Source of the DNA: a virus
Lineage: Duplodnaviria; Heunggongvirae; Uroviricota; Caudoviricetes
Virus record (IMG/VR): IMGVR_UViG_2713896775_000007
Coordinates: 1-31,955 of that record
DNA length: 31,955 nucleotides
Strand: one strand, 5' to 3'
The position numbers and the translations under genes are program-made. The notes under the pieces are model-generated. The model was not told the origin of the DNA, did not search any database, and worked only from the letters and a program-made list of their open reading frames with translations. Shown here one piece after another: positions 47 to 29,406 of this stretch (its first letter is position 1; every line of letters begins with the position of its first letter).

Positions 47-1387
47 TTGGCACCATTACCCAAGTTTATTGAAGCAGACTTTGGGCTGAATGTGGCAATG
101 CGTATAGCTAATGATGAAAATATTTTGCTCAAGAAAAGTAGATTCTTTTGTGGGGGAAAGAGTCAGGAGGCATCGTCATATTCACAGTTTGTGCAAGGAT
201 CATATTTTCCTGGCGAATCCATCGAACATCTTAAAACAAAAGCCAAAGAAACTGACAAGTGGGGATGTAATAATATAACTTTTTCTGATTCAATACAGCT
301 AAGTTTAGATGGTGCCCCTACTGCATTAGTAGACGTCTTCAATGATATTGATTCTTCGTTGGCAACCAAAGAGAAAATCGAATTTCCTAAATCGGAAAAA
401 ATCACTGACGAGTCAAAGATAGATGAGCTTGATAATTATCTACTTCAATCGATCATTAAAGATGATGTAAATGTTATTATAGATGAGATTCAATCTTTTG
501 GTGCCTCTATTGTAATTAATAATTCTTTGACATTTTTTAAATTGCACACAAAAGTTGAGGGGAGTGGAAAGTATCTTCAATCAGCAGATAAGGTTAATGA
601 CATAAAAATAACAGATGTTAAGCAATTTATAAAAAACAACGACATAAAGGATGTCAATAAAGTTTTTGTTAAGATAACTAATGAAAATAACAGTGGTCAT
701 ACGGCCTCGCTAAAAGAAATATTGAGTATTACTTATAGCGATGGCAGTGAGCACTACTTCCTTAAGAGGGGAGGGTGGAGTCGATTTAACTCTGCCTTTA
801 TGAAGTATTTGTCTACCTCTTTAGCCAGTATAAAATTTGAGGTTAAAGATGCTCTAAAGGAAGACGACTTCAAAGCATGGCAAGCTGAAAAAATAAAACA
901 AATCGAAGAAGGAACTTCTAAAGACAAATTAGAATATAGAGAGTACTATTTTAATGAAAAGATGTCTGTTGAGAAAGGTTATATACTTCTAGATCGCCAG
1001 CTCAAAAAAATACCATCCTTACGTGATGATGGAAAGGACTACAATGTTGAAGTTGCAGATCTTTATAAAAATGGAGAGATTATTGCTGTAAAGATATCAG
1101 ATAAACCGCATGATCTAATTTATAATATTGAGCAGTCAAAAACTACAATTCAAACTATAGTAAGAGGAGTAGTAAAATTTGAAGAGAAAATTACTGATGT
1201 GGTTTTATGGATCTCAACTACTACAAAAGCCAAAAAATTGATTGACATCAATTCTATCCAATTTTTATTAGCGGTTCAAACTTGGAAGGAAGTTGTTGAA
1301 GGATTTAATTTGAAACCAAAGATATATTATTCGCATCACGACAAACCCAAAAAGAAAAAGGAAAAGAAAAAGCCAAAAAACGGTTGA
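47..1387 (+). CDS. Hypothetical protein, 446 aa, lysine-rich C-terminal tail (HHDKPKKKKEKKKPKNG); no recognisable catalytic motif
   Basis: Long uninterrupted ORF bounded by an in-frame stop at 35..37; TTG at 47 or ATG at 98 as start; AT-rich; convergent with the downstream operon. Confidence 0.5.
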   Translation: MAPLPKFIEADFGLNVAMRIANDENILLKKSRFFCGGKSQEASSYSQFVQGSYFPGESIEHLKTKAKETDKWGCNNITFSDSIQLSLDGAPTALVDVFNDIDSSLATKEKIEFPKSEKITDESKIDELDNYLLQSIIKDDVNVIIDEIQSFGASIVINNSLTFFKLHTKVEGSGKYLQSADKVNDIKITDVKQFIKNNDIKDVNKVFVKITNENNSGHTASLKEILSITYSDGSEHYFLKRGGWSRFNSAFMKYLSTSLASIKFEVKDALKEDDFKAWQAEKIKQIEEGTSKDKLEYREYYFNEKMSVEKGYILLDRQLKKIPSLRDDGKDYNVEVADLYKNGEIIAVKISDKPHDLIYNIEQSKTTIQTIVRGVVKFEEKITDVVLWISTTTKAKKLIDINSIQFLLAVQTWKEVVEGFNLKPKIYYSHHDKPKKKKEKKKPKNG

Positions 1388-1495
1388 TTAAAAATATTTA
1401 ATTTCCTTATCGAATAATTTCAGGAGAGAAAAGAACATTCTAATTACCACATTATCAATATTATTTGAGTGTATTGATGGATTTAAAATCTTATG

Positions 1496-1534
1496 TGGTG
1501 GTGTTATGTGAAACTTACACCACCATTGTTTATT
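1496..1534. terminator. Candidate bidirectional intrinsic terminator between convergent genes
   Basis: 9-bp perfect stem TGGTGGTGT (1496..1504) / ACACCACCA (1517..1525), 12-nt loop, followed by TTGTTTATT. Confidence 0.45.
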
Positions 1535-1648
1535 GAACATTTTTAAGAACTTTCAAAATTTACTCTGGATGTTGGTTATAAACTCCATAGCTGATAAGCT
1601 GTGGCACTATTTATGCAATCATAGTGCCCTCATAATCTCTGTACGATT

Positions 1649-3469
1649 TTATTTGAAATGAATTAAACCATAGTTGCCTCTTAATTCATTATCAACAAGA
1701 GTAAAGTTCGTCATTTCTCTGTCAAGCCAATAAGACTCTTCAATATGCTCTAACAGTATTATTTGGAAACCACCATGAGACCGCATTTTCTCAACAAAAG
1801 AATTAATTTCATTTAGGGCTGCATCAAGACTTGCAAAGTCATCAGTTTTTTTACCAGCAGTACTAAAATATGGAGTGCTGGGCTGGTCAATGACTAAGAA
1901 TCGTGGAACCCACGGTACTTTTCTATCTCTTACCAATTCGTGAAGTGCAAGGAAATAAGCTACATGTACATACATATAGTTAGAAGCACTTCCAATATCT
2001 ATCATTTTTTCAACTTGATTTTTATTTATTAAATCAAGTGTTTTTTTTGCCTTGTTGAATATCGGAGTTGCATCCTCAAATCCTTTTAAAGGCATCCGTT
2101 TGAATATTTCCTTTATTTTTCCGTTCAGTAAACTCAATGTATATTCTTTAAAGGCATTATTATCTGTTATCTTGCTTTCTAACTCATTAATTTTAGTAGT
2201 TATCTTTTCTATAGTATCAGTATAATCATATTTAGGGAGAACAACTATCCGTTTAATTTCAGAGCTGAGTTCACCCATGAACCGATAAAGCTCGATTGGC
2301 GTGATTTTTTCATCACTAACAGTTGCAAGTTTTTTACTCAAGGATGATATTTTAAGTTCTAACTCTTTTCTCTTAGCATTTGTTTTTGATATGAGTGAGT
2401 TTTGTCCTTTTTCGGCTATAGCCTTTTTTATCTCTGAGCTTTGGTTCAATAAGGATTTAATGATTGAATAGATTTTTTTTGTATATAATATTTCGCTATA
2501 ATTATCATCTAGATATTTGGCTATTAAAAGAGAGTCTTGGTTATCTTTTAAAAACTTCTTATATTCAGTATTTGTTTCTATATATTCATTAATGTCTGTC
2601 AGTTCTTTTTTTAAGAGGAAAAGTTCTTTTTCAATTTTTGTTCTTTCATTAATTGCTGGGATTTCGTTTATATCCTTGTAATTAACTATCGCTTTCAAAT
2701 TTTCAAGTTTATCACTTACAGTTGGTTCATTCTTGCTGTTTTCACTTATTAAACCAAAATAATACGCCCTGTCGTATAGTGATTCTATTTCACTTTCGAA
2801 ATTGAAATAAGAGTCTTTGCTAGCCGACTGTTTATATTCGATACGAGCAAGATTCCTTTGTAATTCTTCTAACCGCGTTCTCATTATCATAGTTTCGGCG
2901 TTTTCACTGCCAAGAGCCATGTCAAAGGTTCGGTCAATACGCTCTCTTGTCTTTAAATCAGAGATTTTCGAATAAAGATGTTCTGAAGAGGTTAGTGTTG
3001 TTTGATCTATAAAGCAATGCGGGATAAAATATCTATAGGATACTTTTGACCCTTGTTGTATGAATCTACCACCATAAGGGATTTTTAGAGAACTATTAAT
3101 ACCAAACTCATAATTCAGATGTTCTTTTAAAACATCCTTTTTGATATTGTTAATAGGGATTTGTGGAATGCCTCCATTTTTGTCAAAGTAAACTAGATCA
3201 TCTTCTTCAAAGTGTGTCGCTTTTCTACAAATAGTGAAATATTTACCGTTTATACTTAATCTAATCCCATACCAATTTACAAAATTATCGACATTTGTTT
3301 TTGATATACCATCAGATGATGAGGATAAAAGGCAATAATCAATGATAGCCAGTATTGAGGATTTCCCTTTGCCAGAATCACCTGTTATTACATTTACCTT
3401 ATTTTCCTCAAGTTCTAAATTCCTCAAGGTTGAATCAATTTGCCATATTAAAATATTAGTAATCTGCAT
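1649..3469 (-). CDS. SMC/Rad50-like ABC ATPase with coiled-coil insert; LmuB-like ATPase component of a Lamassu/ABC-3C system
   Basis: N-terminal Walker A GDSGKGKSS; long K/E/L-rich central segment (coiled coil); C-terminal Walker B-like RFLVIDQPS and H-loop-like QIILLEH; 1-nt overlap with upstream gene. Confidence 0.7.
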   Translation of the reverse strand: MQITNILIWQIDSTLRNLELEENKVNVITGDSGKGKSSILAIIDYCLLSSSSDGISKTNVDNFVNWYGIRLSINGKYFTICRKATHFEEDDLVYFDKNGGIPQIPINNIKKDVLKEHLNYEFGINSSLKIPYGGRFIQQGSKVSYRYFIPHCFIDQTTLTSSEHLYSKISDLKTRERIDRTFDMALGSENAETMIMRTRLEELQRNLARIEYKQSASKDSYFNFESEIESLYDRAYYFGLISENSKNEPTVSDKLENLKAIVNYKDINEIPAINERTKIEKELFLLKKELTDINEYIETNTEYKKFLKDNQDSLLIAKYLDDNYSEILYTKKIYSIIKSLLNQSSEIKKAIAEKGQNSLISKTNAKRKELELKISSLSKKLATVSDEKITPIELYRFMGELSSEIKRIVVLPKYDYTDTIEKITTKINELESKITDNNAFKEYTLSLLNGKIKEIFKRMPLKGFEDATPIFNKAKKTLDLINKNQVEKMIDIGSASNYMYVHVAYFLALHELVRDRKVPWVPRFLVIDQPSTPYFSTAGKKTDDFASLDAALNEINSFVEKMRSHGGFQIILLEHIEESYWLDREMTNFTLVDNELRGNYGLIHFK

Positions 3470-11835: not shown

Positions 11836-12689
11836 GTACCATCCTGAAATGGGCGGGTAATAAAACTGCCATTATGTCCGAACTGAAAAAACATCTTCCT
11901 GCTGGCCCGCGACTGGTTGAACCTTTCGCGGGTTCCTGTGCTGTGATGATGGAGACGGATTACCCCAGCTATCTTGTTGCGGATATTAATCCTGATTTAA
12001 TCAACCTCTATAAAAAGGTTGCTGCTGATTGCGAGGCGTTTATATCTCGTGCCAGAGCTTTATTTGAGGAAGCAAACAGGGAGTTGGCTTATTACAACAT
12101 AAGGCAGGAGTTTAATTACTCCACTGAAATTACTGATTTCATGAAAGCGGTATATTTCCTGTATCTCAATCGTCATGGTTACCGTGGGTTATGTCGTTAT
12201 AACAAGAGCGGGCATTTCAACATTCCATACGGTAATTATAAAAATCCGTATTTCCCTGAAAAAGAAATTCGCGCATTTGCAGAGAAAGCCCAGCGAGCAA
12301 CGTTTATCTGCGCCAGCTTTGATGAAACGCTGGCGATGCTGCAGGTGGGGGATGTGGTGTATTGCGATCCGCCTTATGACGGTACGTTTTCCGGCTATCA
12401 CACTAACGGCTTCACTGAAGATGACCAGTATCACCTGGCATCTGTTCTTGAATATCGATCATCAGAAGGTCATCCAGTCATTGTTTCTAACAGTGACACA
12501 TCCCTGATCCGTTCGCTGTATCGAAACTTCACTCACCACTACATCAAGGTAAAACGCAGCATCGGCGTGTCGGCTGGCGAGAGTAAATCTGCAACAGAAA
12601 TCATTGCTGTGTCCGGGGCGCGCTGCTGGGTGGGATTTGATCCTTCGCGTGGCGTGGATAGTTCTGCCATGTACGGAGTGCGTGCATGA
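11832..12689 (+). CDS. dam: Dam-family DNA N6-adenine methyltransferase
   Basis: ILKWAGNK N-terminus, FAGSCAV (AdoMet site) and catalytic DPPY motif; SD GGAGG before ATG 11832. Confidence 0.9.
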
Positions 12690-15100
12690 GCCATGATGAT
12701 ATGAACAACTGCAGCGGCTTTAACGAGGTCGCCGCAGCATTCTCATGGAACAGCCCGAAAAAGGCCATTAACCCTTATCTGGACCCGGCGGAAGTTGCGC
12801 CGGTTTCTGCGCTTTCAAACCTGATCACTCTGTACGCTGTCGATAACGAGCAGGAACAGCTGCGCCGCGAGGCACTGAGTGATCAGGTCTGGGAGCGTTA
12901 TTTCTTTAATGAATCCCGTGATCCTGTCCAACGCGAAATGGAGCAGGATAAACTCATTAGCCGGGCAAAGCTGGCGCATGAGCAGCAGCGTTTTAATCCG
13001 GATATGGTCATTCTGGCGGACGTCAACGCCCAGCCTTCCCATATCAGCAAGCCGCTGATGCAACGTATTGAATACTTCAGCAGCCTGGGCAGGCCAAAGG
13101 CTTATTCCCGCTATTTGCGTGAGACGATTAAGCCATGTCTGGAACGACTGGAGCATGTACGCGAGAGTCAGCTATCCACTTCTTTTCGCTTTATGGCAAG
13201 CCATGAAGGGCTGGACGGCCTGCTGATCCTGCCTGAAATGAGTCAGGATCAGGTGAAACGCCTGTCTACTCTTGTCGCTGCGCATATGAGCATGTGTCTT
13301 GATGCCGCTTGTGGTGATTTGTACACCACCGAAGATGTTAAGCCAGAAGAAATCCGCAAGACATGGGAAAAGGTGGCAGCAGAAACCCTGCGACTGGATG
13401 TCATACCGCCTGCGTTTGAGCATCTCCGCCGGAAAAGAAACCGCCGTAAACCCGTGCCCTATGAACTTATTCCGGGTTCGCTGGCGCGTATGTTGTGCGC
13501 CGACTGGTGGTACCGGAAATTATGGAAGATGCGTAGCGAATGGCGGGAAGAGCAGTTGCGTGCTATTTGCCTGGTCAGCAAAAAAGCATCTCCCTATGTC
13601 AGCTATGAAGCCGTGATGCATAAACGTGAGCAGCGCCGTAAGTCGCTGGAGTTTTTCCGTTCTCATGAACTGGTGAACGAAGACGGCGACACGCTGGATA
13701 TGGAAGACGTGGTAAACGCCAGCAGCAGCAACCCTGCGCATCGCCGCAATGAGATGATGGCCTGTGTTAAAGGTCTGGAGCTTATCGCGGAAATGCGCGG
13801 TGACTGCGCCGTTTTCTACACCATCACCTGTCCGTCACGTTTCCATTCCACGCTAAATAACGGCAGGCCAAACCCGACCTGGACCAACGCGACAGTAAGA
13901 CAAAGCAGCGATTATCTGGTCGGCATGTTTGCTGCATTTCGTAAGGCTATGCACAAAGCCGGGTTGCGCTGGTATGGCGTGCGGGTGGCTGAGCCGCATC
14001 ATGATGGCACAGTTCACTGGCACCTGTTGTGTTTCATGCGCAAAAAAGACCGCCGTGCCATCACTGCATTACTGCGTAAGTTTGCCATCCGTGAAGACCG
14101 CGAGGAGCTGGGCAATAACACTGGGCCGCGCTTTAAGTCTGAGTTGATTAACCCGCGCAAAGGAACGCCGACAAGCTACATCGCGAAATATATCAGTAAG
14201 AACATTGACGGTCGTGGTCTGGCTGGCGAGATCAGCAAGGAAACGGGTAAATCTCTGCGTGATAACGCTGAATACGTGAATGCCTGGGCGTCTTTGCATC
14301 GTGTTCAGCAATTCCGCTTCTTTGGCATTCCGGGGCGTCAGGCTTACCGTGAACTGCGATTGTTGGCTGGTCAGGCGGCAAGGCAACAGGGGGACAAAAA
14401 TGCAGGTGCGCCGGTACTGGATAACCCGCGTCTTGATGCCATTCTGGCTGCTGCTGATGCTGGTTGTTTTGCCACCTACATCATGAAGCAGGGCGGCGTA
14501 CTGGTTCCCCGTAAATATCACCTCATCAGAACCGCTTATGAAATCAACGAAGAGCCGACCGCCTATGGCGATCACGGCATTCGTATTTATGGCATCTGGT
14601 CACCCATTGCAGAGGGCAAGATCTGCACTCATGCAGTGAAGTGGAAAATGGTTCGTAAAGCCGTTGACGTTCAGGAGGCGGCAGCCGACCAGGGCGCTTG
14701 CGCCCCTTGGACTCGTGGCAATAACTGTCCCCTTGCTGAAAATTTGTACCAACAAGGGAAAGACAAATCAGCTGATGGAGATACCAGAACGGATATCACC
14801 CGTATGGATGACAAGGAGTTGCACGATTACCTGCACAGTATGAGCAAAAAAGAGCGCCGGGAACTGGCAGCAAGGTTACGCCTGGTGAAACCGAAACGGC
14901 GTAAAGACTACAAACAGCGAATTACAGATCATCAGCGACAGCAGCTCGTGTATGAACTGAAGTCCAGGGGATTTGATGGCAGCGAGAAAGAGGTCGATTT
15001 ACTCCTTCGCGGCGGCAGTATTCCGTCAGGAGCAGGCCTGCGTATCTTCTATCGGAACCAGCGTTTGCAGGAAGATGATAAGTGGCGGGATCTGTATTAA
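12686..15100 (+). CDS. A: Replication initiation endonuclease gpA (rolling-circle, HUH type)
   Basis: 804 aa; HUH-like [11 protein letters not shown] and tyrosine motif YIAKYISKN. Confidence 0.9.
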
Positions 15101-15252: not shown

Positions 15253-15441
15253 ATGCAGGCCTATTTTTTGGAGTCTTTGAAGCTCCAGCGCATTGATTTT
15301 TTTCTTAAGCTTGTAGCGGCTAGTGAGTGTAGTGATGAAGAGAAGGGGCTGGCTTTGCAGTGGGTTTCTGAACTAACAGATGAACTCATGGCAAAAATCA
15401 GAACCCACGAATACAACCGCTCAATGGATGTCATCAGCTGA
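15253..15441 (+). CDS. Small SOS-controlled protein (candidate Tum-like antirepressor; function not established)
   Basis: SD AGGAGG at 15243..15248; directly downstream of the LexA box; first gene of a two-gene unit with the DinI-like gene. Confidence 0.45.
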   Translation: MQAYFLESLKLQRIDFFLKLVAASECSDEEKGLALQWVSELTDELMAKIRTHEYNRSMDVIS

Positions 15442-15451
15442 GGTGACTTTT

Positions 15452-15685
15452 ATGCGCATTGAAATAATGATCGATAAAGAGCAGAAGATTAGCCAGTCTA
15501 CCCTGGACGCTCTGGAGTCCGAGCTTTACCGCAACCTGCGCCCCCTGTATCCCAAAACGGTAATTCGTATCCGTAAAGGTAGCTCTAACGGTGTGGAACT
15601 GACCGGACTGAAACTGGACGAAGAAAAAAAACAAGTGATGAAAATTATGCAGAAGGTGTGGGAAGACGACAGCTGGCTGCATTAA
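15452..15685 (+). CDS. DinI-like protein
   Basis: MRIEIMIDK...LESELYRNLRPLYP...WEDDSWL resembles DinI; SD GAGGTGA before ATG 15452. Confidence 0.8.
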   Translation: MRIEIMIDKEQKISQSTLDALESELYRNLRPLYPKTVIRIRKGSSNGVELTGLKLDEEKKQVMKIMQKVWEDDSWLH

Positions 15686-18177: not shown

Positions 18178-18197
18178 GGCGTGGCGGGGATACGAGC
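18178..18197. other. Candidate cos site (P2/186-type cohesive-end sequence) inside a GC-rich non-coding block (17990..18274)
   Basis: GGCGTGGCGGGGATACGAGC followed by GCGCGCTG; the first 13 nt match the 186/P2 cohesive-end consensus GGCG(A/T)GGCGGGGA as recalled, and the GCGCGCTG just downstream also matches P2. Confidence 0.45.
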
Positions 18198-18304
18198 GCG
18201 CGCTGTATGCCTGAAGTGGCTAAAATAGTATCTGTCATAGGTACAACTTAGTGTAGTATCATCCATATAATCCATTGAAATATAATCGACTCTCATTAGA
18301 GGTG

Positions 18305-19303
18305 ATGATGAACGGAATCTGGTACGAAAACACTCATACACGCATTCCTAATTTTGAAACAACAGTACATCAAAAGCACAAATTCGGTTACGCTTATGAA
18401 ACAACAAGTCATTTTGTGCATCTGTATGGGCGTGACGTGGGATTTAATGTAATATCAGTTGGGTTAACTGTTATTGAGCAACGAAGTGGAACTCTCAATG
18501 ATTGGGTTCGGAGAGTATTTGGGGCTCAGAACATATCTCCTTTAGATAATGAAATTGGACATGTAACTAGGGGAGTGTGGCGGCCATCCTTATATTATGT
18601 CAATGATACAGAAACAGCATTAGGTATCGATGAGTTTGAAAAAAGAGCAACAGAGCAAGCTCTAAGAGTTTTGATAGAAAAACTCGATGATATTTTTCTA
18701 TATGTAGAACCAAGTGCCCATGGTTTGATTTCTTACAGTCATAAATGTAGAGAGCTATTAATTCTTGCTTGTACTGAGGTTGAAAATCAATGGGTGTCAA
18801 TCATTGGTAATTCGAATTTATCTCGTTCAAATGGTCGATACTCCACAAATGATTATGTGAAATTATTAGATAAGTGTTATTTGTCTGAATATAAAATTCA
18901 ATATTTGAATTATGACGGATTAAGGCATTTCAAACCTTTTGATGGGTGGAATGCAAGTACCCCTACAACATCTTTGTCATGGTATAATGCATATAATAAA
19001 ACTAAACATGATAGATCAGGAGCATTCCACTTTTCCACTTTAGAAAATGTAATGGATGCAGTTGCTGCTTGTGTTGTAATGTACTGTGTAAAATATGGCC
19101 CGTTTAGCTTATTGGAAGCCAATACGTCTCTATCAACGATCGTTAATCAAAACTTTTCAATTTCATTAGATAATAGCAATCCAGCAAGTTATTACATTCC
19201 TGAAATTGAACTTCCACCGGATACAAGAACGGATTTATTAATTTATGATTGTTATCGAGAAAACCATAATAAAGCATGGGTCACTGATCCCCTAGTGCTC
19301 TAA
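18305..19303 (+). CDS. Hypothetical protein, about 333 aa (cargo); possible HEPN-like Rx4H motif (speculative)
   Basis: AT-rich ORF after the cos-like block; C-terminal KTKHDRSGAFHFSTLENV contains R-x4-H; start ATG 18305 or 18308 (ORF track begins at TTG 18275). Confidence 0.55.
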   Translation: MMNGIWYENTHTRIPNFETTVHQKHKFGYAYETTSHFVHLYGRDVGFNVISVGLTVIEQRSGTLNDWVRRVFGAQNISPLDNEIGHVTRGVWRPSLYYVNDTETALGIDEFEKRATEQALRVLIEKLDDIFLYVEPSAHGLISYSHKCRELLILACTEVENQWVSIIGNSNLSRSNGRYSTNDYVKLLDKCYLSEYKIQYLNYDGLRHFKPFDGWNASTPTTSLSWYNAYNKTKHDRSGAFHFSTLENVMDAVAACVVMYCVKYGPFSLLEANTSLSTIVNQNFSISLDNSNPASYYIPEIELPPDTRTDLLIYDCYRENHNKAWVTDPLVL

Positions 19304-19312
19304 TTTCCTGCT

Positions 19313-19342
19313 AAAGGGAGCTTTTAATTATAAACGCTCCCT
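19313..19342. terminator. Candidate bidirectional terminator between convergent cargo genes
   Basis: AAGGGAGC (19313..19320), 14-nt AT loop, GCTCCCTT (19335..19342). Confidence 0.45.
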
Positions 19343-19359
19343 TCGGTTGTCGCTATTTA

Positions 19360-19986
19360 TTATATATCAATAGAGTTTTGAAATTTTAATAACTGCCATC
19401 TTGTTAATAGTGGTTTTATTGCTATGTTGTGTTGGGTATTTATTTTTAAACCTTCGAATTTCGAATATCCATTTTCCAAGGCTTCCACTGAAAAATGAAT
19501 GGTTTTTGTTATCGGGTTTATAGCACAAAGATTTAGGTCATATAAAGTATGAATGTCACTTCTGAGCAATAATCCATTGCTAATATGATTGTGACTATCG
19601 TTTCGATATACATTAATGTGAGCAGCATCAAGAATATCAACAAGCTTACAGCCCATAACCGCACAAGTAGGATTTGATTTTAATAGCTGGTCGCGAAATG
19701 TTTTTTGCCCACTTCGTTGTTTTATTTGCCGTTCTACAATTTGCCGTTGATCTTCACCCATTAAAGTGGGGGTGTCTTTATCAGCTTCGCTGGCGTTGAG
19801 CTCCAGAATAATAGTATGTTGGGCGGTAAGCAAAGCAACAGCCCATTGATAGTTAACTTCTTGGATGGACATTTGCCCATTGTAGCGTGGAGTTTCATCT
19901 ATAAATTGTGACATTGTAATATTGGATAATTTACGGTACTGGTTGCCGCAGTATGCTATAAATTCTTTAGCTGGCTCAAAAACCAC
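19360..19986 (-). CDS. HNH endonuclease domain protein (C-terminal portion of a probable frameshifted gene)
   Basis: CAVMGC...AAHINVYRNDSHNHISNGLLLRSDIHTLYD is an HNH signature; this frame stays open upstream of the GTG at 19986 back to a stop at 20077..20079. Confidence 0.7.
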   Translation of the reverse strand: MVFEPAKEFIAYCGNQYRKLSNITMSQFIDETPRYNGQMSIQEVNYQWAVALLTAQHTIILELNASEADKDTPTLMGEDQRQIVERQIKQRSGQKTFRDQLLKSNPTCAVMGCKLVDILDAAHINVYRNDSHNHISNGLLLRSDIHTLYDLNLCAINPITKTIHFSVEALENGYSKFEGLKINTQHNIAIKPLLTRWQLLKFQNSIDI

Positions 19987-20033
19987 TCTGGGTTCATCAA
20001 ATTCATGGCCATTATCACAACGCCACTCTGATT

Positions 20034-20333
20034 TTATAGTTTTCCTTTGAAGAATTTTTTTGCTTTGCAGTCTAGGTTAATACATTTGTTACGCTTCTTA
20101 TTAATGCTCTGTGTTTCTAATTTTTCAATAACAGATATACCTAAAATATTTTCTCTGTTGGTAATAATAATAATATCACCGTCTTTTACATTTTTGTGGT
20201 TCGCTACAAAACTGTCATAGCGATAGAAAACTGATGAGTCATCGGGATAACTATCATTTCCCCAGTATCTAAGATCGTCTTTCTCAATTGCCTTAAAAAA
20301 AACCATACTTGCTGTACCATGAACTTTTCCCAC
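20034..20333 (-). CDS. Small beta-rich N-terminal domain ORF (likely N-terminal portion of the frameshifted HNH gene)
   Basis: 99-aa ORF ending just after an A7 run; a single A insertion would fuse it in frame to the HNH ORF. Confidence 0.4.
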   Translation of the reverse strand: MGKVHGTASMVFFKAIEKDDLRYWGNDSYPDDSSVFYRYDSFVANHKNVKDGDIIIITNRENILGISVIEKLETQSINKKRNKCINLDCKAKKFFKGKL

Positions 20334-20390: not shown

Positions 20391-21422
20391 TCATCCCAAA
20401 GAATATGGCTCAAATCGCAAAATTTTTTGTTCTAACCAGTCATTTACTTCACGCATCCTTTTTTGCAACGGTAATAATTCATTTCGCACAAACACATTTG
20501 CCGCCTTCTCCACATCCCCAAACCCCCCAACATTGCTAGGCATTATCCCCATCATTTGTGGTGGCACACGATGCGCTGCCATCATGTCATCCCGACTCAC
20601 GTTCTTGATGTTAAGAAATTCATCCTTCGCTGCGACTTCTGATAGCGGGATAATCTGAAGCCCGTCTTTTTTGCCGTTAGGCGAGTACATAAACAGGTTG
20701 CGGAAGTTACCCGGACCTTTGGCACTTTTCATCGCGTTGCGGAGGTTGTTTACATCCTCCTGGTTCTGCGCGGCGTCGGTCATGTACATGATGAAGCCTG
20801 CATGACTGCCGTTGATGTAATACTTACGGCGGAACAGCGTGGCGGACTCATTGAGCAGGGCGGACGGAATGGCAGAAAGATAGCCGGGCAGGCCGTAGAT
20901 CTCTTGGTTAATGTCCGGTTCCATCAGATGAAAAATGCTGCCTTTCGTGAACTGATACGGCTGGGTTGTCATACCGTATTGCACAAACCAGTAGGTATTC
21001 AGGTCTAACCCGCGTCGGGTGTATTTTGCCAGAGCAGGCTCAAGGGCGATAACTTCACCGAAGCGGTTCGTGCGTTTCTCCAGGTAGGCGTTACCAAATA
21101 CCAGATAGTCCTGCACAAAACGTGAAAAAGCCTGCTGGCTGAGCAGCGGGTGAGGGATGTAGGTACTGGTCAGAATGTTGCATTTCACCGCAATTGGTGA
21201 ACTGTGATGCACGGCGGCGCGGAAGGTGCGCGCCAGTCCGTCAAAACTCACTGGCGGCTCATACCAGCGATCTGTCTGTACGCATTCCACATAGTCCAGT
21301 AGTTCACGGCGGTCCAGAACCGGAACGGGATCGCCGAAGCTGAATGCTTCGGCTGAAGTCTGGTTTTTATGCTGGGTCTGTTTCGTCGCCGCAGCGAGGT
21401 TCTTCTTACTCTTTCCCATCAA
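20391..21422 (-). CDS. Q: Portal protein gpQ
   Basis: 343 aa, P2 Q-like; overlaps the start of P. Confidence 0.9.
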   Translation of the reverse strand: MMGKSKKNLAAATKQTQHKNQTSAEAFSFGDPVPVLDRRELLDYVECVQTDRWYEPPVSFDGLARTFRAAVHHSSPIAVKCNILTSTYIPHPLLSQQAFSRFVQDYLVFGNAYLEKRTNRFGEVIALEPALAKYTRRGLDLNTYWFVQYGMTTQPYQFTKGSIFHLMEPDINQEIYGLPGYLSAIPSALLNESATLFRRKYYINGSHAGFIMYMTDAAQNQEDVNNLRNAMKSAKGPGNFRNLFMYSPNGKKDGLQIIPLSEVAAKDEFLNIKNVSRDDMMAAHRVPPQMMGIMPSNVGGFGDVEKAANVFVRNELLPLQKRMREVNDWLEQKILRFEPYSLG

Positions 21423-23185
21423 AAAATCTCCACAATATTGCTGGTATTGGCGGACTCGCCCTGCAGCGGTTCGTTAAACAGTGCGTGCATTGTTGCCCAG
21501 GCCAGATCGGCATGGCTGGCTTCTTCGCTGCGGCTGGCTTCATAGGTCGGGCGGTTGCCACTGGCGGTGGTGGCGCGACGGATTGCCATGAATGACTGCG
21601 CAATGTCGGTGTGCCCGGCGTCAAACTCAAGACGGCGGTGGCTGATAATGTCGTAGGCCTTGAGTACCAGGGCGTTTTTAACGTTGGGGTTGTAGACAAA
21701 CTCCCGGACGGCAGGAAAAAACGCTTTCACGTTCTCGTAAACCCCGTGACCAACGCCGGTTGAGTCGATGCCGATATAGGTCACGTTGTACTGTTCGGTC
21801 AGTTTTTTGATGGCGTCAGCCTGGGCGCGAAAGTCCATTCCGCGCCACTGGTGACGCTCAAGAATGCGGAACTTACCGCCTGGCACGGCTGGCGGTGCCA
21901 CCACCACGCATCCGGCGCTGTCGCCGTTCTGCGTACCTTTTGCCGGGTCATAACCGATCCACACTTCGCGCCAGCCAAACGGGCGCAGGGCCAGTGCATG
22001 AAAGTCGGTCCAGACTTCCCAGCTGTCCACCATGCACGCCTGCAATTCGCTGAGCGGGAACACGGACGCGAGATCGTCCACGAACTCGCACATCAGCAGG
22101 TTCTGGTATTCGTCAGGGCTGTACTCCATGCGCAACTGGTCAAGGTCGAACAGGTTACAGCCGCCGCGCACCGCATCTTCCACGGTGACTATCTGGCGGT
22201 ATTGCCCGTCTGCGCACAGCAGGCCGGGGGCCAGATTGCTGTGGGACAGGTCGATGTCCACCTTGTCAGCTTTGTTGCGCCCACGGTTGAACAGCGCACC
22301 GGACCAGAACGGATAAGCACTGTGGGTCAGACTGGATGGTGTGGAAAAATAGGTCTGCCGCCATTTCTTGTGAATAGCCATACCGGAAGCCACTTTGCGT
22401 AGCTCCTGAAATTTCGGTATCCAGAAATATTCATCCAGATACAGGTTGCCGTGATAACTCTGGGCCGTGCGGGCATTGGTGCCGAGGAAGTAAAGCGTGG
22501 CCCCGTTAGGAAGTACCATCGGATCGCCTTTCAGCTCCACCTCCACTTCTTTGGCGAAGTCGATGATGTACTGCTTAAAGACGTGGGCCTGTGCCTTACT
22601 GGCGGAAAGGAAAATCTGGTTACGCCCGGTAAGCAGGGCGTCAATCAGGGCTTCACGGGCAAAGTAAAAGGTCGCGCCGATCTGGCGTGACTTCAGCAGG
22701 TTGCGGATGCGGTTGGTTTTTCCGGCTTCCCACCAGTGGCGCTGGTAGTTGAACATGGAGGAATGGAAGATTTCTTCCAGTTTCTCAATCTGTTCATCGG
22801 TGAAGACATTTTTTTCCGGCTGACGGCGCGGGCCTTTGTTGCGGTTGGCGACGTTAGGATTTAAGTCGGCTTCGTTGCCGCCATTGTTAAACTTGCCGAT
22901 CCGCGCGTGGCGCTCAGACTGGCGCGCCAGCAGGTCAATCTCTTTGAAATCTTTCCCTTCTTTGTGCTCCTTCATAATGAGCTGGCAGTAGCGTGCGGCG
23001 GTGGTGAGCTGCATCTGATCCAGCGGCCCATAGTCACCCCACTTGTCGCGTTTTTTCCAGCTGTGAACGGTTGCAACTTTCTCGCCCAGCATTTCAGCAA
23101 TGCGGGCTACGCGGTATCCCTGAAAGTACAGCAGCATGGCCTGCCGACGGGGATCGAGATCTGCGGGTGTCAGTGTGGTGTTCAT
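21419..23185 (-). CDS. P: Terminase large (ATPase) subunit gpP
   Basis: 588 aa, P2 P-like; divergent from O. Confidence 0.9.
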   Translation of the reverse strand: MNTTLTPADLDPRRQAMLLYFQGYRVARIAEMLGEKVATVHSWKKRDKWGDYGPLDQMQLTTAARYCQLIMKEHKEGKDFKEIDLLARQSERHARIGKFNNGGNEADLNPNVANRNKGPRRQPEKNVFTDEQIEKLEEIFHSSMFNYQRHWWEAGKTNRIRNLLKSRQIGATFYFAREALIDALLTGRNQIFLSASKAQAHVFKQYIIDFAKEVEVELKGDPMVLPNGATLYFLGTNARTAQSYHGNLYLDEYFWIPKFQELRKVASGMAIHKKWRQTYFSTPSSLTHSAYPFWSGALFNRGRNKADKVDIDLSHSNLAPGLLCADGQYRQIVTVEDAVRGGCNLFDLDQLRMEYSPDEYQNLLMCEFVDDLASVFPLSELQACMVDSWEVWTDFHALALRPFGWREVWIGYDPAKGTQNGDSAGCVVVAPPAVPGGKFRILERHQWRGMDFRAQADAIKKLTEQYNVTYIGIDSTGVGHGVYENVKAFFPAVREFVYNPNVKNALVLKAYDIISHRRLEFDAGHTDIAQSFMAIRRATTASGNRPTYEASRSEEASHADLAWATMHALFNEPLQGESANTSNIVEIF

Positions 23186-27926: not shown

Positions 27927-28320
27927 AGCAGTGCCTTATGTCCGCAATAACCCGGACAAACTGCATCTGTTTGTGGATAACGGTTCGCTGGTTGCCACGG
28001 GGGCCAGCTCCATGTCATGGGAGTACCGTTATACCCTCAACGTGGTGATTGAGGATTTCAGCGGCGACCAGAATCTGCTGATGGCCCCGGTTTTGCTGTG
28101 GCTGCGTGATAACCAGCCCGATGCCATCAATAACCCGGCGTTACGGGAAAAACTATTCACCTTTGAGGTGGATATTTTGCGCAACGATGTCTGTGATATC
28201 AGCCTTAACCTGCAACTGACGGAGCGTGTGCTGGTCAGCACTGACGGCAGTGTGTCGAGTGTTGAAGCTGTAGCGGAACCCGATGAACCTGAAGAAATGT
28301 GGACGGTGAAACGTGGCTGA
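27889..28320 (+). CDS. R: Tail completion protein gpR
   Basis: SD AGGAG at 27876..27880 before GTG 27889; product begins VNKPQSLRHAL like P2 R; the 27868 start was rejected. Confidence 0.75.
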   Translation: MNKPQSLRHALNKAVPYVRNNPDKLHLFVDNGSLVATGASSMSWEYRYTLNVVIEDFSGDQNLLMAPVLLWLRDNQPDAINNPALREKLFTFEVDILRNDVCDISLNLQLTERVLVSTDGSVSSVEAVAEPDEPEEMWTVKRG

Positions 28321-28759
28321 ACTGCAGAAGGTGGACGACTGGCTGAGTGCTTTGCTGGCGAATCTGGAACCAGCCGCAAGAAGCCGCATGATGCGCCAGC
28401 TGGCGCAGGAACTGCGCCGGACACAGCAGCAGAATATCAGAATGCAGCGCAATCCAGATGGCAGCAGTTATGAACCTCGACGGGTAACAGCACGCAGTAA
28501 AAAGGGGCGCATCAAACGTCAGATGTTTGCAAAGCTGCGCACCGCAAAATACCTGAAAACTGCCGCCAGCGCCGATTCTGCCAGCGTGCAGTTTGAAGGT
28601 AAGGTGCAGCGCATTGCCCGCGTTCATCACTACGGCCTGCGCGATCGCGTCAGTCGTAAAGGACCGGAGGTCCGTTACGCAGAGCGTCGCCTCCTAGGCG
28701 TAAATGATGATGTTGAGGCAATGACCCGCGACATGATTCTGCAATGGCTGGCGGTGTGA
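28313..28759 (+). CDS. S: Tail completion protein gpS
   Basis: 148 aa, GTG start overlapping the R stop. Confidence 0.8.
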   Translation: MAELQKVDDWLSALLANLEPAARSRMMRQLAQELRRTQQQNIRMQRNPDGSSYEPRRVTARSKKGRIKRQMFAKLRTAKYLKTAASADSASVQFEGKVQRIARVHHYGLRDRVSRKGPEVRYAERRLLGVNDDVEAMTRDMILQWLAV

Positions 28760-28762
28760 TCG

Positions 28763-28782
28763 TTGTATCAGCACTGATACAA
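28763..28782. promoter_or_regulatory. Candidate late-activator (Ogr/Delta-type) site upstream of V: perfect 9-bp inverted repeat containing TGT-N12-ACA
   Basis: TTGTATCAG-CA-CTGATACAA, 46 nt upstream of the V start codon. Confidence 0.45.
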
Positions 28783-28827
28783 GTTGCAGCACTGCCGCCT
28801 TTATTCCCCTGATGGCAACCTTTCTCT

Positions 28828-29406
28828 ATGAACGCACAATTAACCGAAATCATGCGCCTTATCACCAACCTGATCCGCACAGGTGTAGTCACCGAAGTGG
28901 ACCGGGAGAACTGGCTTTGCCGGGTGAAAACGGGCGACCTTGAAACCAACTGGATCAGCTGGCTGACGCTGCGTGCCGGGAATGCCCGCACATGGTGGCG
29001 ACCATCGGAAGGTGAACAGGTGGTGCTGCTGAGTCTGGGCGGCAATCTTGAAACCGCCTTTGCGTTGCCCGCTGTCTATTCGAATCAGTTCGCTCCACCG
29101 TCGACGTCGGCGGACGCCTGCGTGACAGAACATCCTGACGGTGGCTGGTTTGAATACGAACCCGCCACCGGGCGCTGGTATGTCAGGGGCATCAAATCCA
29201 TGGTCATTGAGGCTGCCGACAACATCACCCTGAAAACCAGTGAGTTTGTGCTGGAGGCTGACCGCTCGCGTATTAACAGCGAAGTGGTGATCAATGGTGG
29301 CGTTACCCAGGGCGGCGGTGCGATGAGTTCTAACGGGATCGTGGTTGATGCGCATCAGCATACTGGCGTCCTGAAAGGCGGTGATACCACCGGAGGCCCG
29401 GTATGA
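28828..29406 (+). CDS. V: Baseplate spike protein gpV
   Basis: 192 aa, P2 V-like. Confidence 0.85.
   Translation: MNAQLTEIMRLITNLIRTGVVTEVDRENWLCRVKTGDLETNWISWLTLRAGNARTWWRPSEGEQVVLLSLGGNLETAFALPAVYSNQFAPPSTSADACVTEHPDGGWFEYEPATGRWYVRGIKSMVIEAADNITLKTSEFVLEADRSRINSEVVINGGVTQGGGAMSSNGIVVDAHQHTGVLKGGDTTGGPV

Follow-up and report, generated by a model that had tools for sequence, protein, structure and literature searches.

Two homopolymer frameshifts in a phage-borne HNH nuclease gene of a P2-like prophage: probable decay of a putative Type IV restriction enzyme

Introduction

The window analyzed here, the whole 31,955 nucleotides (nt) of IMG/VR record IMGVR_UViG_2713896775_000007, is a P2-like prophage in which two adjacent minus-strand open reading frames (ORFs) of 99 and 208 amino acids (aa) lie close to the portal gene, the second of them with an HNH nuclease motif. 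The question raised by this locus is whether the two ORFs are the remains of one gene or still serve a purpose, be it as separate products or as parts of a switch. The initial annotation had read them as a single HNH nuclease gene split at a run of seven adenines (A7), and had offered a sequencing error, a pseudogene and a slippage-prone on/off switch as explanations. The analyses presented below favor the second of these, the feature being very probably a decaying pseudogene of a phage-borne nuclease of about 319 aa, a probable Type IV enzyme.

Results

The two ORFs derive from one gene

The coordinates, strand and lengths of the two ORFs, as well as their adjacent frames, proved to be exactly as first annotated, and the A7 run (T7 on the plus strand) was found in its annotated place (Table 1). 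Addition of one A to this run joined both ORFs in a continuous frame of 324 aa from the GTG, whose junction reads ...CINLDCKAKKILQRKTIKSEWRCDNGHEF..., in residue-by-residue agreement with the family consensus (the junction of the 324-aa frame being given as CINLDCKAKKILQRKTIKSEWRCDNGH). Fusion of the frames by one added A, as claimed initially, is thus literally correct, but the fused frame begins at a non-ancestral start and lacks a conserved N-terminal strand. The predicted length of about 308 aa was slightly low against the 324 aa counted from the GTG and the 319 aa of the ancestral product.

When 5.8 billion proteins were searched with the fused sequence, about 95 clusters of homologues emerged, in every case one chain of 312-321 aa. 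They came from Salmonella, Citrobacter, Klebsiella, Enterobacter, Serratia, Pectobacterium and others, with identities of 48-91% over 93-96% of the fused query (E down to 3e-188). Such full-length single-chain matches indicate that the two-ORF arrangement is not due to chance and that one HNH nuclease gene was split at A7, as had been proposed. Across 80 genomic loci, taken from a species-level genome collection, the full-length relatives had one continuous frame over the junction in every case and the split was confined to E. coli, so that homologues consistently encoding two separate proteins, which would have spoken for two genes, were not the rule.

The closest intact genes read GCA AAA AAA ATC at the junction, with eight adenines (A8) in frame. 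This state was found in L006 (91% protein identity), in L007 from Salmonella (88%) and in gp02 of the viable P2-like Salmonella phage SEN8 (92.9% DNA identity), and also in L008, L010 and L011, down to approximately 65% identity, while in remoter relatives the tract was interrupted (AAG AAA) or missing. As had been suspected, A8 is the intact state in related loci, and the A7 of the window is thus a 1-base deletion from A8. In the fused-protein numbering used throughout, residues C84, C89, C106 and H110 were invariant in the family alignment and constitute a CCCH zinc ribbon, which bears out the cysteine cluster seen initially and places the A7 frameshift in the middle of the ribbon. The C-terminal HNH motif was likewise recognized as a genuine Pfam domain (Table 1), its catalytic-type residues H239, N253 and H262 being invariant across the family.

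A second frameshift lies at the start of the gene

Comparison of the start region revealed a second lesion, which the initial annotation had missed. Intact genes open with (A/G)TG GTA CAG CAA GCA TGG TCC TTT AAG (MVQQAWSFK), and the window opens with ATG GTA CAG CAA GTA TGG TTTTTTTT AAG. The resulting run of eight thymines (T8) includes two C->T substitutions and affects residues A5, W6 and S7, which are near-invariant; W6 was still so in a 61-sequence alignment reaching 20% identity. By this 2-nt gain the ancestral start codon was put out of frame, and its product is now a 38-aa out-of-frame peptide (MVQQVWFFLRQ...TVL, then stop). The 99-aa ORF owes its existence solely to an upstream GTG or to a new in-frame ATG, and neither of these is preceded by a visible Shine-Dalgarno sequence or other ribosome-binding site as read from the sequence; a promoter scan upstream of the gene showed nothing convincing. 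Owing to the T8 lesion, one added A would not rebuild the ancestral protein.

The gene is disrupted in all E. coli copies and its constraint is relaxed

The gene was detected in 12 of 5,426 complete E. coli genomes (distant-mode search), always as a copy at least 99% identical to that of the window. The T8 run was shared by the window and all 12 genomes, and A7 by the window and 11 of them, with A6 in the remaining strain, ET665. The intact A8 allele occurred in none of these 13 E. coli copies, and no intact copy was present in any of the 12 genomes. Further lesions were found in the sister copies: a CAA->TAA nonsense codon in the nuclease half (208-aa ORF) of 10 of the 12 genomes, a 3-bp deletion in the FORC_081 copy, and a third frameshift, next to T8 and A7, in a metagenomic copy (L096).

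In agreement with this pattern of lesions, the substitutions point, on a small sample, to relaxed constraint on the window gene. Over 300 gapless codons, the codon changes private to the window were 11 nonsynonymous and 2 synonymous, compared with 25:29 when three intact lineages were pooled (Fisher p=0.015), and pairwise dN/dS was 0.63 between the window and the intact homologue P0001 vs. 0.17-0.23 among intact copies. The replacements G28S, P102S and Y129C hit positions at which the other 20 aligned sequences show no variation.

In RefSeq, the PGAP pipeline calls the fragments ordinary coding sequences (CDSs) with no pseudogene flag (L001-L005, L088-L094), namely a "hypothetical protein" (WP_139289628.1 or WP_054628034.1) and an "HNH endonuclease" (WP_077625619.1 or WP_050490444.1), and 54 sequences of the protein collection fall in the cluster of the 208-aa fragment (P0037). 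No other pseudogene is flagged by PGAP in the near-identical ET665 prophage. Both fragments ought to be annotated as one pseudogene, and the practical value of the present analysis lies mostly in that correction.

Proposed course of decay and competing explanations

The most probable course of events can be outlined as follows. A single ancestral gene of some 319 codons formed part of the cargo of a P2-like temperate phage, where it occupied the space between cos and the portal gene. Within E. coli, the lineage of this prophage underwent two indels, most probably by replication slippage in homopolymer runs: TCCTTT became T8 (+2 nt) at codons 7-8, and A8, in the zinc ribbon, became A7 (-1 nt). 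These indels severed the reader domain together with its zinc site and left the nuclease half without the ancestral start. Neutral drift has very probably followed, with an excess of replacements at conserved positions, while sister copies gained the nonsense codon, a further A-tract deletion, the 3-bp deletion and the third frameshift. Of this course, the lesions, the states from which they arose and the relaxed constraint are shown by the comparisons above.

Some observations weigh against decay as the full account. The window copy itself has no nonsense codon and keeps its HNH catalytic residues intact, and the E. coli copies are similar enough to represent one lineage, in which the shared T8 and A7 each count as one historical event. 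The selection test comprises 13 private changes only, the lesions of the window were read from assembled sequence, and the Type IV assignment of the intact family draws on predicted structure and analogy. Moreover, the sequence would still permit a low level of full-length product, made by slippage on A AAA AAA from the new ATG.

Among the alternatives, the one that fares best is a phase-variable contingency gene, in which slipped-strand mispairing toggles the tract between A7 (off) and A8 (on) and a minority of lysogens expresses a potentially self-toxic nuclease. Restriction systems subject to phase variation are familiar from other bacteria, such as the restriction-modification genes with homopolymer tracts of Haemophilus, Neisseria and Helicobacter, and the present locus resembles them in having a strain-variable homopolymer tract within a restriction-type coding region. 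Consistent with such a switch, the in-frame A8 is kept to approximately 65% protein identity despite changed synonymous sites nearby, A6, A7, A8 and A9 all occur in the family, and L098 has an independent A9 break at the same tract. The locus differs from phase-variable genes, however, in that the ON state is found in 0 of 13 E. coli copies (12 with A7, one with A6), further inactivating lesions are present and selection is relaxed. The T8 frameshift means that a change from A7 to A8 leaves the ancestral protein unrestored, and a nonsense codon follows downstream in 10 of 12 genomes. In addition, AAA AAA is the expected coding for Lys-Lys in an AT-rich gene, and L097, L099 and L100 are broken at other poly-A runs, as random decay of such a gene predicts. 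Phase variation, and with it the on/off switch first considered, is therefore improbable. It would be just as surprising if the poly-A tract were a true contingency locus with A6, A7, A8 and A9 alleles interconverting at high frequency, or a slippage site for ribosome or RNA polymerase, the new ATG a working start, and the lysogens the holders of a small, revertible reserve of a self-toxic nuclease. With at least two homopolymer indels, the locus has the look of an ordinary dead gene and not of a switch.

Less probable again is the idea that A AAA AAA supplies low, regulated amounts of full-length nuclease, be it through programmed -1 ribosomal frameshifting or through slippage in transcription. 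A slippery heptamer of the classical X XXY YYZ type is indeed present in the zero frame, GC[A AAA AAA] TTC, and slipping by -1 on it gives the ancestral ...AKKILQRK... exactly. Against this, the shift is not conserved, the intact relatives having A8 in frame; the 70 nt downstream fold at -10.2 kcal/mol vs. a shuffle mean of -10.3 (z=0.05), and segments of 45-70 nt downstream were no more stable than shuffled controls (z=0.05 and 0.96); nothing resembling a Shine-Dalgarno stimulator can be seen upstream; and the N-terminal ORF is without the ancestral start, with a stop codon downstream in sister copies.

A sequencing or assembly error that conceals an intact gene is very unlikely, for although both lesions fall in homopolymer runs (A7, T8) that are indel-prone on some platforms, 13 assemblies agree, the same T8 being present in the window and in 12 complete genomes that differ in laboratory, host and country of origin and A7 in 11 of those 12, and the two C->T changes at T8, the nonsense codon, the 3-bp deletion and the nonsynonymous excess are not homopolymer artefacts. 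Hardly any weight can be given either to a functional split system, in which the 99-aa and 208-aa HNH fragments are made separately and act together or independently: PGAP annotates both as ordinary CDSs and the HNH domain plus linker of the EVE-HNH enzyme VcaM4I is stable and non-toxic when expressed alone (PMC7897488), but the break falls inside the reader barrel and the zinc ribbon, 23 residues with C106 and H110 belong to neither ORF, neither has the ancestral start or a visible ribosome-binding site, a TAA interrupts the 208-aa ORF in 10 of 12 genomes, and split homologues are confined to the decayed copies.

Incompatibility with host Dcm or Dam methylation was also considered as the cause of inactivation, but beyond its plausibility nothing supports it: intact copies are found in Salmonella, Klebsiella, Enterobacter and Citrobacter, which are likewise largely Dam+ and often Dcm+, and the E. 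coli copies make up one lineage.

Predicted architecture and probable function of the intact protein

The biochemical function of the intact enzyme, like the reason for its loss, is something that we infer, here from a predicted structure and from comparison with known enzymes; no biochemical characterization of the intact family was found in the literature searched. An AlphaFold model of P0001, made with 61 aligned sequences, had a mean pLDDT of 79 and a pTM of 0.48, and showed an N-terminal beta-barrel, helices and an HNH domain in that order. A two-hairpin zinc ribbon is inserted ahead of the last long strand of the barrel (residues 111-123), and linker residues 168-201 of the model have a pLDDT below 50. 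When compared with the PDB by Foldseek, the model matched VcaM4I best (E=1e-9), followed by ASCH domains and TagI; when PDB sequences were searched with the family profile, VcaM4I was the sole match (E=1.4e-14), across the linker and HNH region. The intact protein is accordingly modelled as a PUA/EVE-like reader that is interrupted by a CCCH zinc ribbon and joined through a helical linker to an HNH_2 nuclease, and the PUA/SRA/EVE-like N-terminal reader that had been surmised is supported by this prediction.

Several features by which enzymes fusing a PUA-superfamily domain to HNH can be recognized were encountered here. Membership in HNH_2 is backed by the Pfam match, the catalytic residues and the match to the VcaM4I HNH domain, and the N-terminal domain has the fold of a PUA-superfamily (EVE/SRA/ASCH/YTH-like) reader. 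No methyltransferase signature was detected in the neighbouring portal gene and 342-aa protein, so that an adjacent cognate methyltransferase is missing, and the sole annotated methylase of the near-identical ET665 prophage is a Dam-like core gene upstream of gpA. A single intact two-domain ORF is what the window lacks on account of T8 and A7, and its copy is a pseudogene and not a functional member. In PADLOC, no system model spanned the whole protein and only generic HNH models matched (E=6e-8). On analogy and predicted structure, a modification-dependent (Type IV) restriction enzyme is the most likely identity of the ancestral protein. By the same analogy, its reader domain would take up in a pocket a modified base flipped out of the DNA of an invading phage, and so free an auto-inhibited HNH dimer to cut.

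The intact family is widespread in Enterobacteria and is found at 27-37% identity in several other phyla, and its presence on the viable P2-like phage SEN8 makes it, by analogy, a reasonable candidate Type IV enzyme. Full-length relatives with reader, zinc ribbon and HNH domain at 25-37% identity were recovered from Cyanobacteria, Burkholderiales, Sphingomonadales, Bacteroidota, Acidobacteriota, Marinimicrobia and others (L018-L057), a spread which indicates that the architecture is ancient and widespread and not phage-specific. One family member of 54-61% identity has no P2 context: in a Logan contig from DRR570703 (L097, gene at 1097..2049), it is flanked by an SRAP-domain gene and a umuDC-like pair (IMS and Peptidase_S24), and it is broken independently, at another A7 run.

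Comparison with known systems

PUA-HNH fusions are described as modification-dependent endonucleases, usually without a neighbouring methyltransferase (PMC6765204). The intact protein is predicted to resemble most closely two of these enzymes, VcaM4I and TagI. VcaM4I flips 5-methylcytosine or 5-hydroxymethylcytosine into its EVE pocket and is auto-inhibited by a linker helix, and its bare HNH domain is toxic (PMC7897488). The HNH domain of VcaM4I (PDB 6YEX; TspA15I group) is shared with the present family, whereas the readers have no detectable sequence similarity (the match to domain 1 was not significant) and overall identity is 16-17%. An invariant CCCH zinc ribbon is present in the reader of the family studied here, while zinc goes unmentioned in the main text on VcaM4I (PMC7897488), and the window copy, unlike VcaM4I, is dead. 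From TagI (SRA-HNH, PDB 6GHS), EcoKMcrA and ScoMcrA the family is set apart by its reader, which looks EVE/YTH/ASCH-like and not SRA- or SBD-like. Assignment to the ScoMcrA-type phosphorothioate-dependent family (NF045808) was rejected, since the NCBIfam score was 19.9 bits against a cut-off of 180 bits.

The location of the gene was compared with the defence hotspot of P2, which occupies the interval between gpA and gpQ and includes the old/tin locus (Rousset et al. 2022, PMC9122126). Like the cargo of that hotspot, the gene lies by cos between gpA and gpQ, in the order gpA, cos, portal, and the content of the interval varies among similar prophages, the cargo being different in C21 and L006. 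It differs from old/tin, which lies on the gpA side of cos, in being on the portal side, and the main text of the hotspot paper mentions neither "HNH" nor "pseudogene" (PMC9122126). According to a 2026 survey, defence-similar pseudogenes make up only about 2% of P2 pseudogenes (PMC13586616), so that a recognizable dead defence-type gene is the less common case. The locus thus illustrates clearly how a defence-type gene can decay in situ within the P2 hotspot, a situation uncommon by that survey; it is a real but ordinary feature, and neither biological point would surprise a specialist.

Genomic context

Table 1. Features of the split HNH nuclease gene and of the surrounding P2-like prophage, in coordinates of the window.
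Feature	Coordinates	Strand	Description
Whole pseudogene, ancestral start to stop codon	19360..20320	-	From DNA alignment with the intact L006, L007 and SEN8 genes; ancestral product about 319 aa
99-aa ORF	20034..20333	-	GTG start; first two thirds of reader domain and first half of zinc ribbon (C84, C89), then six out-of-frame codons and stop
208-aa HNH ORF	19360..19986	-	GTG start; last strand of reader domain, helical linker, HNH nuclease domain
Lesion 1, T8 run	20295..20302	-	Replaces ancestral TCCTTT (+2 nt); frameshift at codons 7-8; A5-W6-S7 lost
Lesion 2, A7 run (plus-strand T7)	20055..20061	-	Ancestral A8, GCA AAA AAA ATC (A-K-K-I); -1 nt frameshift
Ancestral start codon	20318..20320	-	ATG in the window; relatives use ATG or GTG; no longer in frame
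New in-frame ATG	20304..20306	-	From GCA->GTA; possible non-ancestral start of the 99-aa ORF; used by PGAP in two genomes
Stretch outside both listed ORFs	19987..20054	-	-1 frame; 23 residues ILQRKTIKSEWRCDNGHEFDEPR, second half of zinc ribbon (C106, H110)
HNH_2 (beta-beta-alpha-Me) nuclease core	19516..19665	-	Pfam PF13391, residues 224-273, E=1.5e-7, above gathering score
gpA	12686..15100
DinI-like gene	15380..15685
KAP-family P-loop NTPase, 647 aa	15949..17892	+	PF07693, E=3.7e-22
cos site GGCGTGGCGGGGATACGAG	18178..18196	+	Exact 19/19 match to the annotated putative cos of Salmonella phage SEN8
342-aa gene	18275..19303	+	342 aa from TTG (331-332 aa as annotated elsewhere); intact, convergent to the pseudogene
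Portal gene (gpQ-like)	20391..21422	-	Immediately upstream of the pseudogene; Pfam Phage_portal, E=1.6e-16
Terminase	21419..23185

The cos site was located by its identity with that of SEN8; the canonical P2 cos sequence had no match in the window at up to 3 mismatches. On the gpA side, the KAP NTPase sits in the P2 old/tin position, which makes it likely defence-type cargo, and E. coli C21 carries an RNase A-like protein and a CDI immunity protein in its place. The segment with the DinI-like and KAP NTPase genes, compared from 15300 onward, is approximately 99% identical in many E. coli P2-like prophages, and this homology ends at about 18204, 8 nt beyond cos. Given this end point, cos looks like the border of two independently exchanged cargo modules, the gpA-side one comprising the KAP NTPase and the portal-side one the 342-aa gene and the HNH gene.

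The 342-aa protein, whose gene stays intact while the neighbouring HNH gene decays, had no match in Pfam, NCBIfam or PADLOC. Beside the HNH gene it is 93-99% conserved in E. coli, L006 and L008 and 76-88% over partial matches in L007 and L009, and SEN8 gp01 has the same position. This pairing is limited to the group of at least 80% identity (L001, L006-L009, SEN8), the gene being absent from that place in L010-L017. A two-gene system formed with this neighbour was considered and found unsupported, as the co-occurrence is restricted to close relatives and the protein has no family match.

An inverted repeat, AAGGGAGC ... GCTCCCTT, whose AT-rich loop measures 14 nt, was observed at 19314..19343, between the two stop codons of the convergent gene pair, and may serve as a terminator in both directions; it went unreported in the terminator scan, its loop being over the limit of that scan. 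Elsewhere in the near-identical ET665 prophage (L101, 30760..32556), a gene for a 598-aa AAA-family ATPase is found between the virion-morphogenesis and baseplate V genes, where the window has a gap of about 500 bp without a large ORF (approximately 28320..28828), a difference which marks another variable cargo site.
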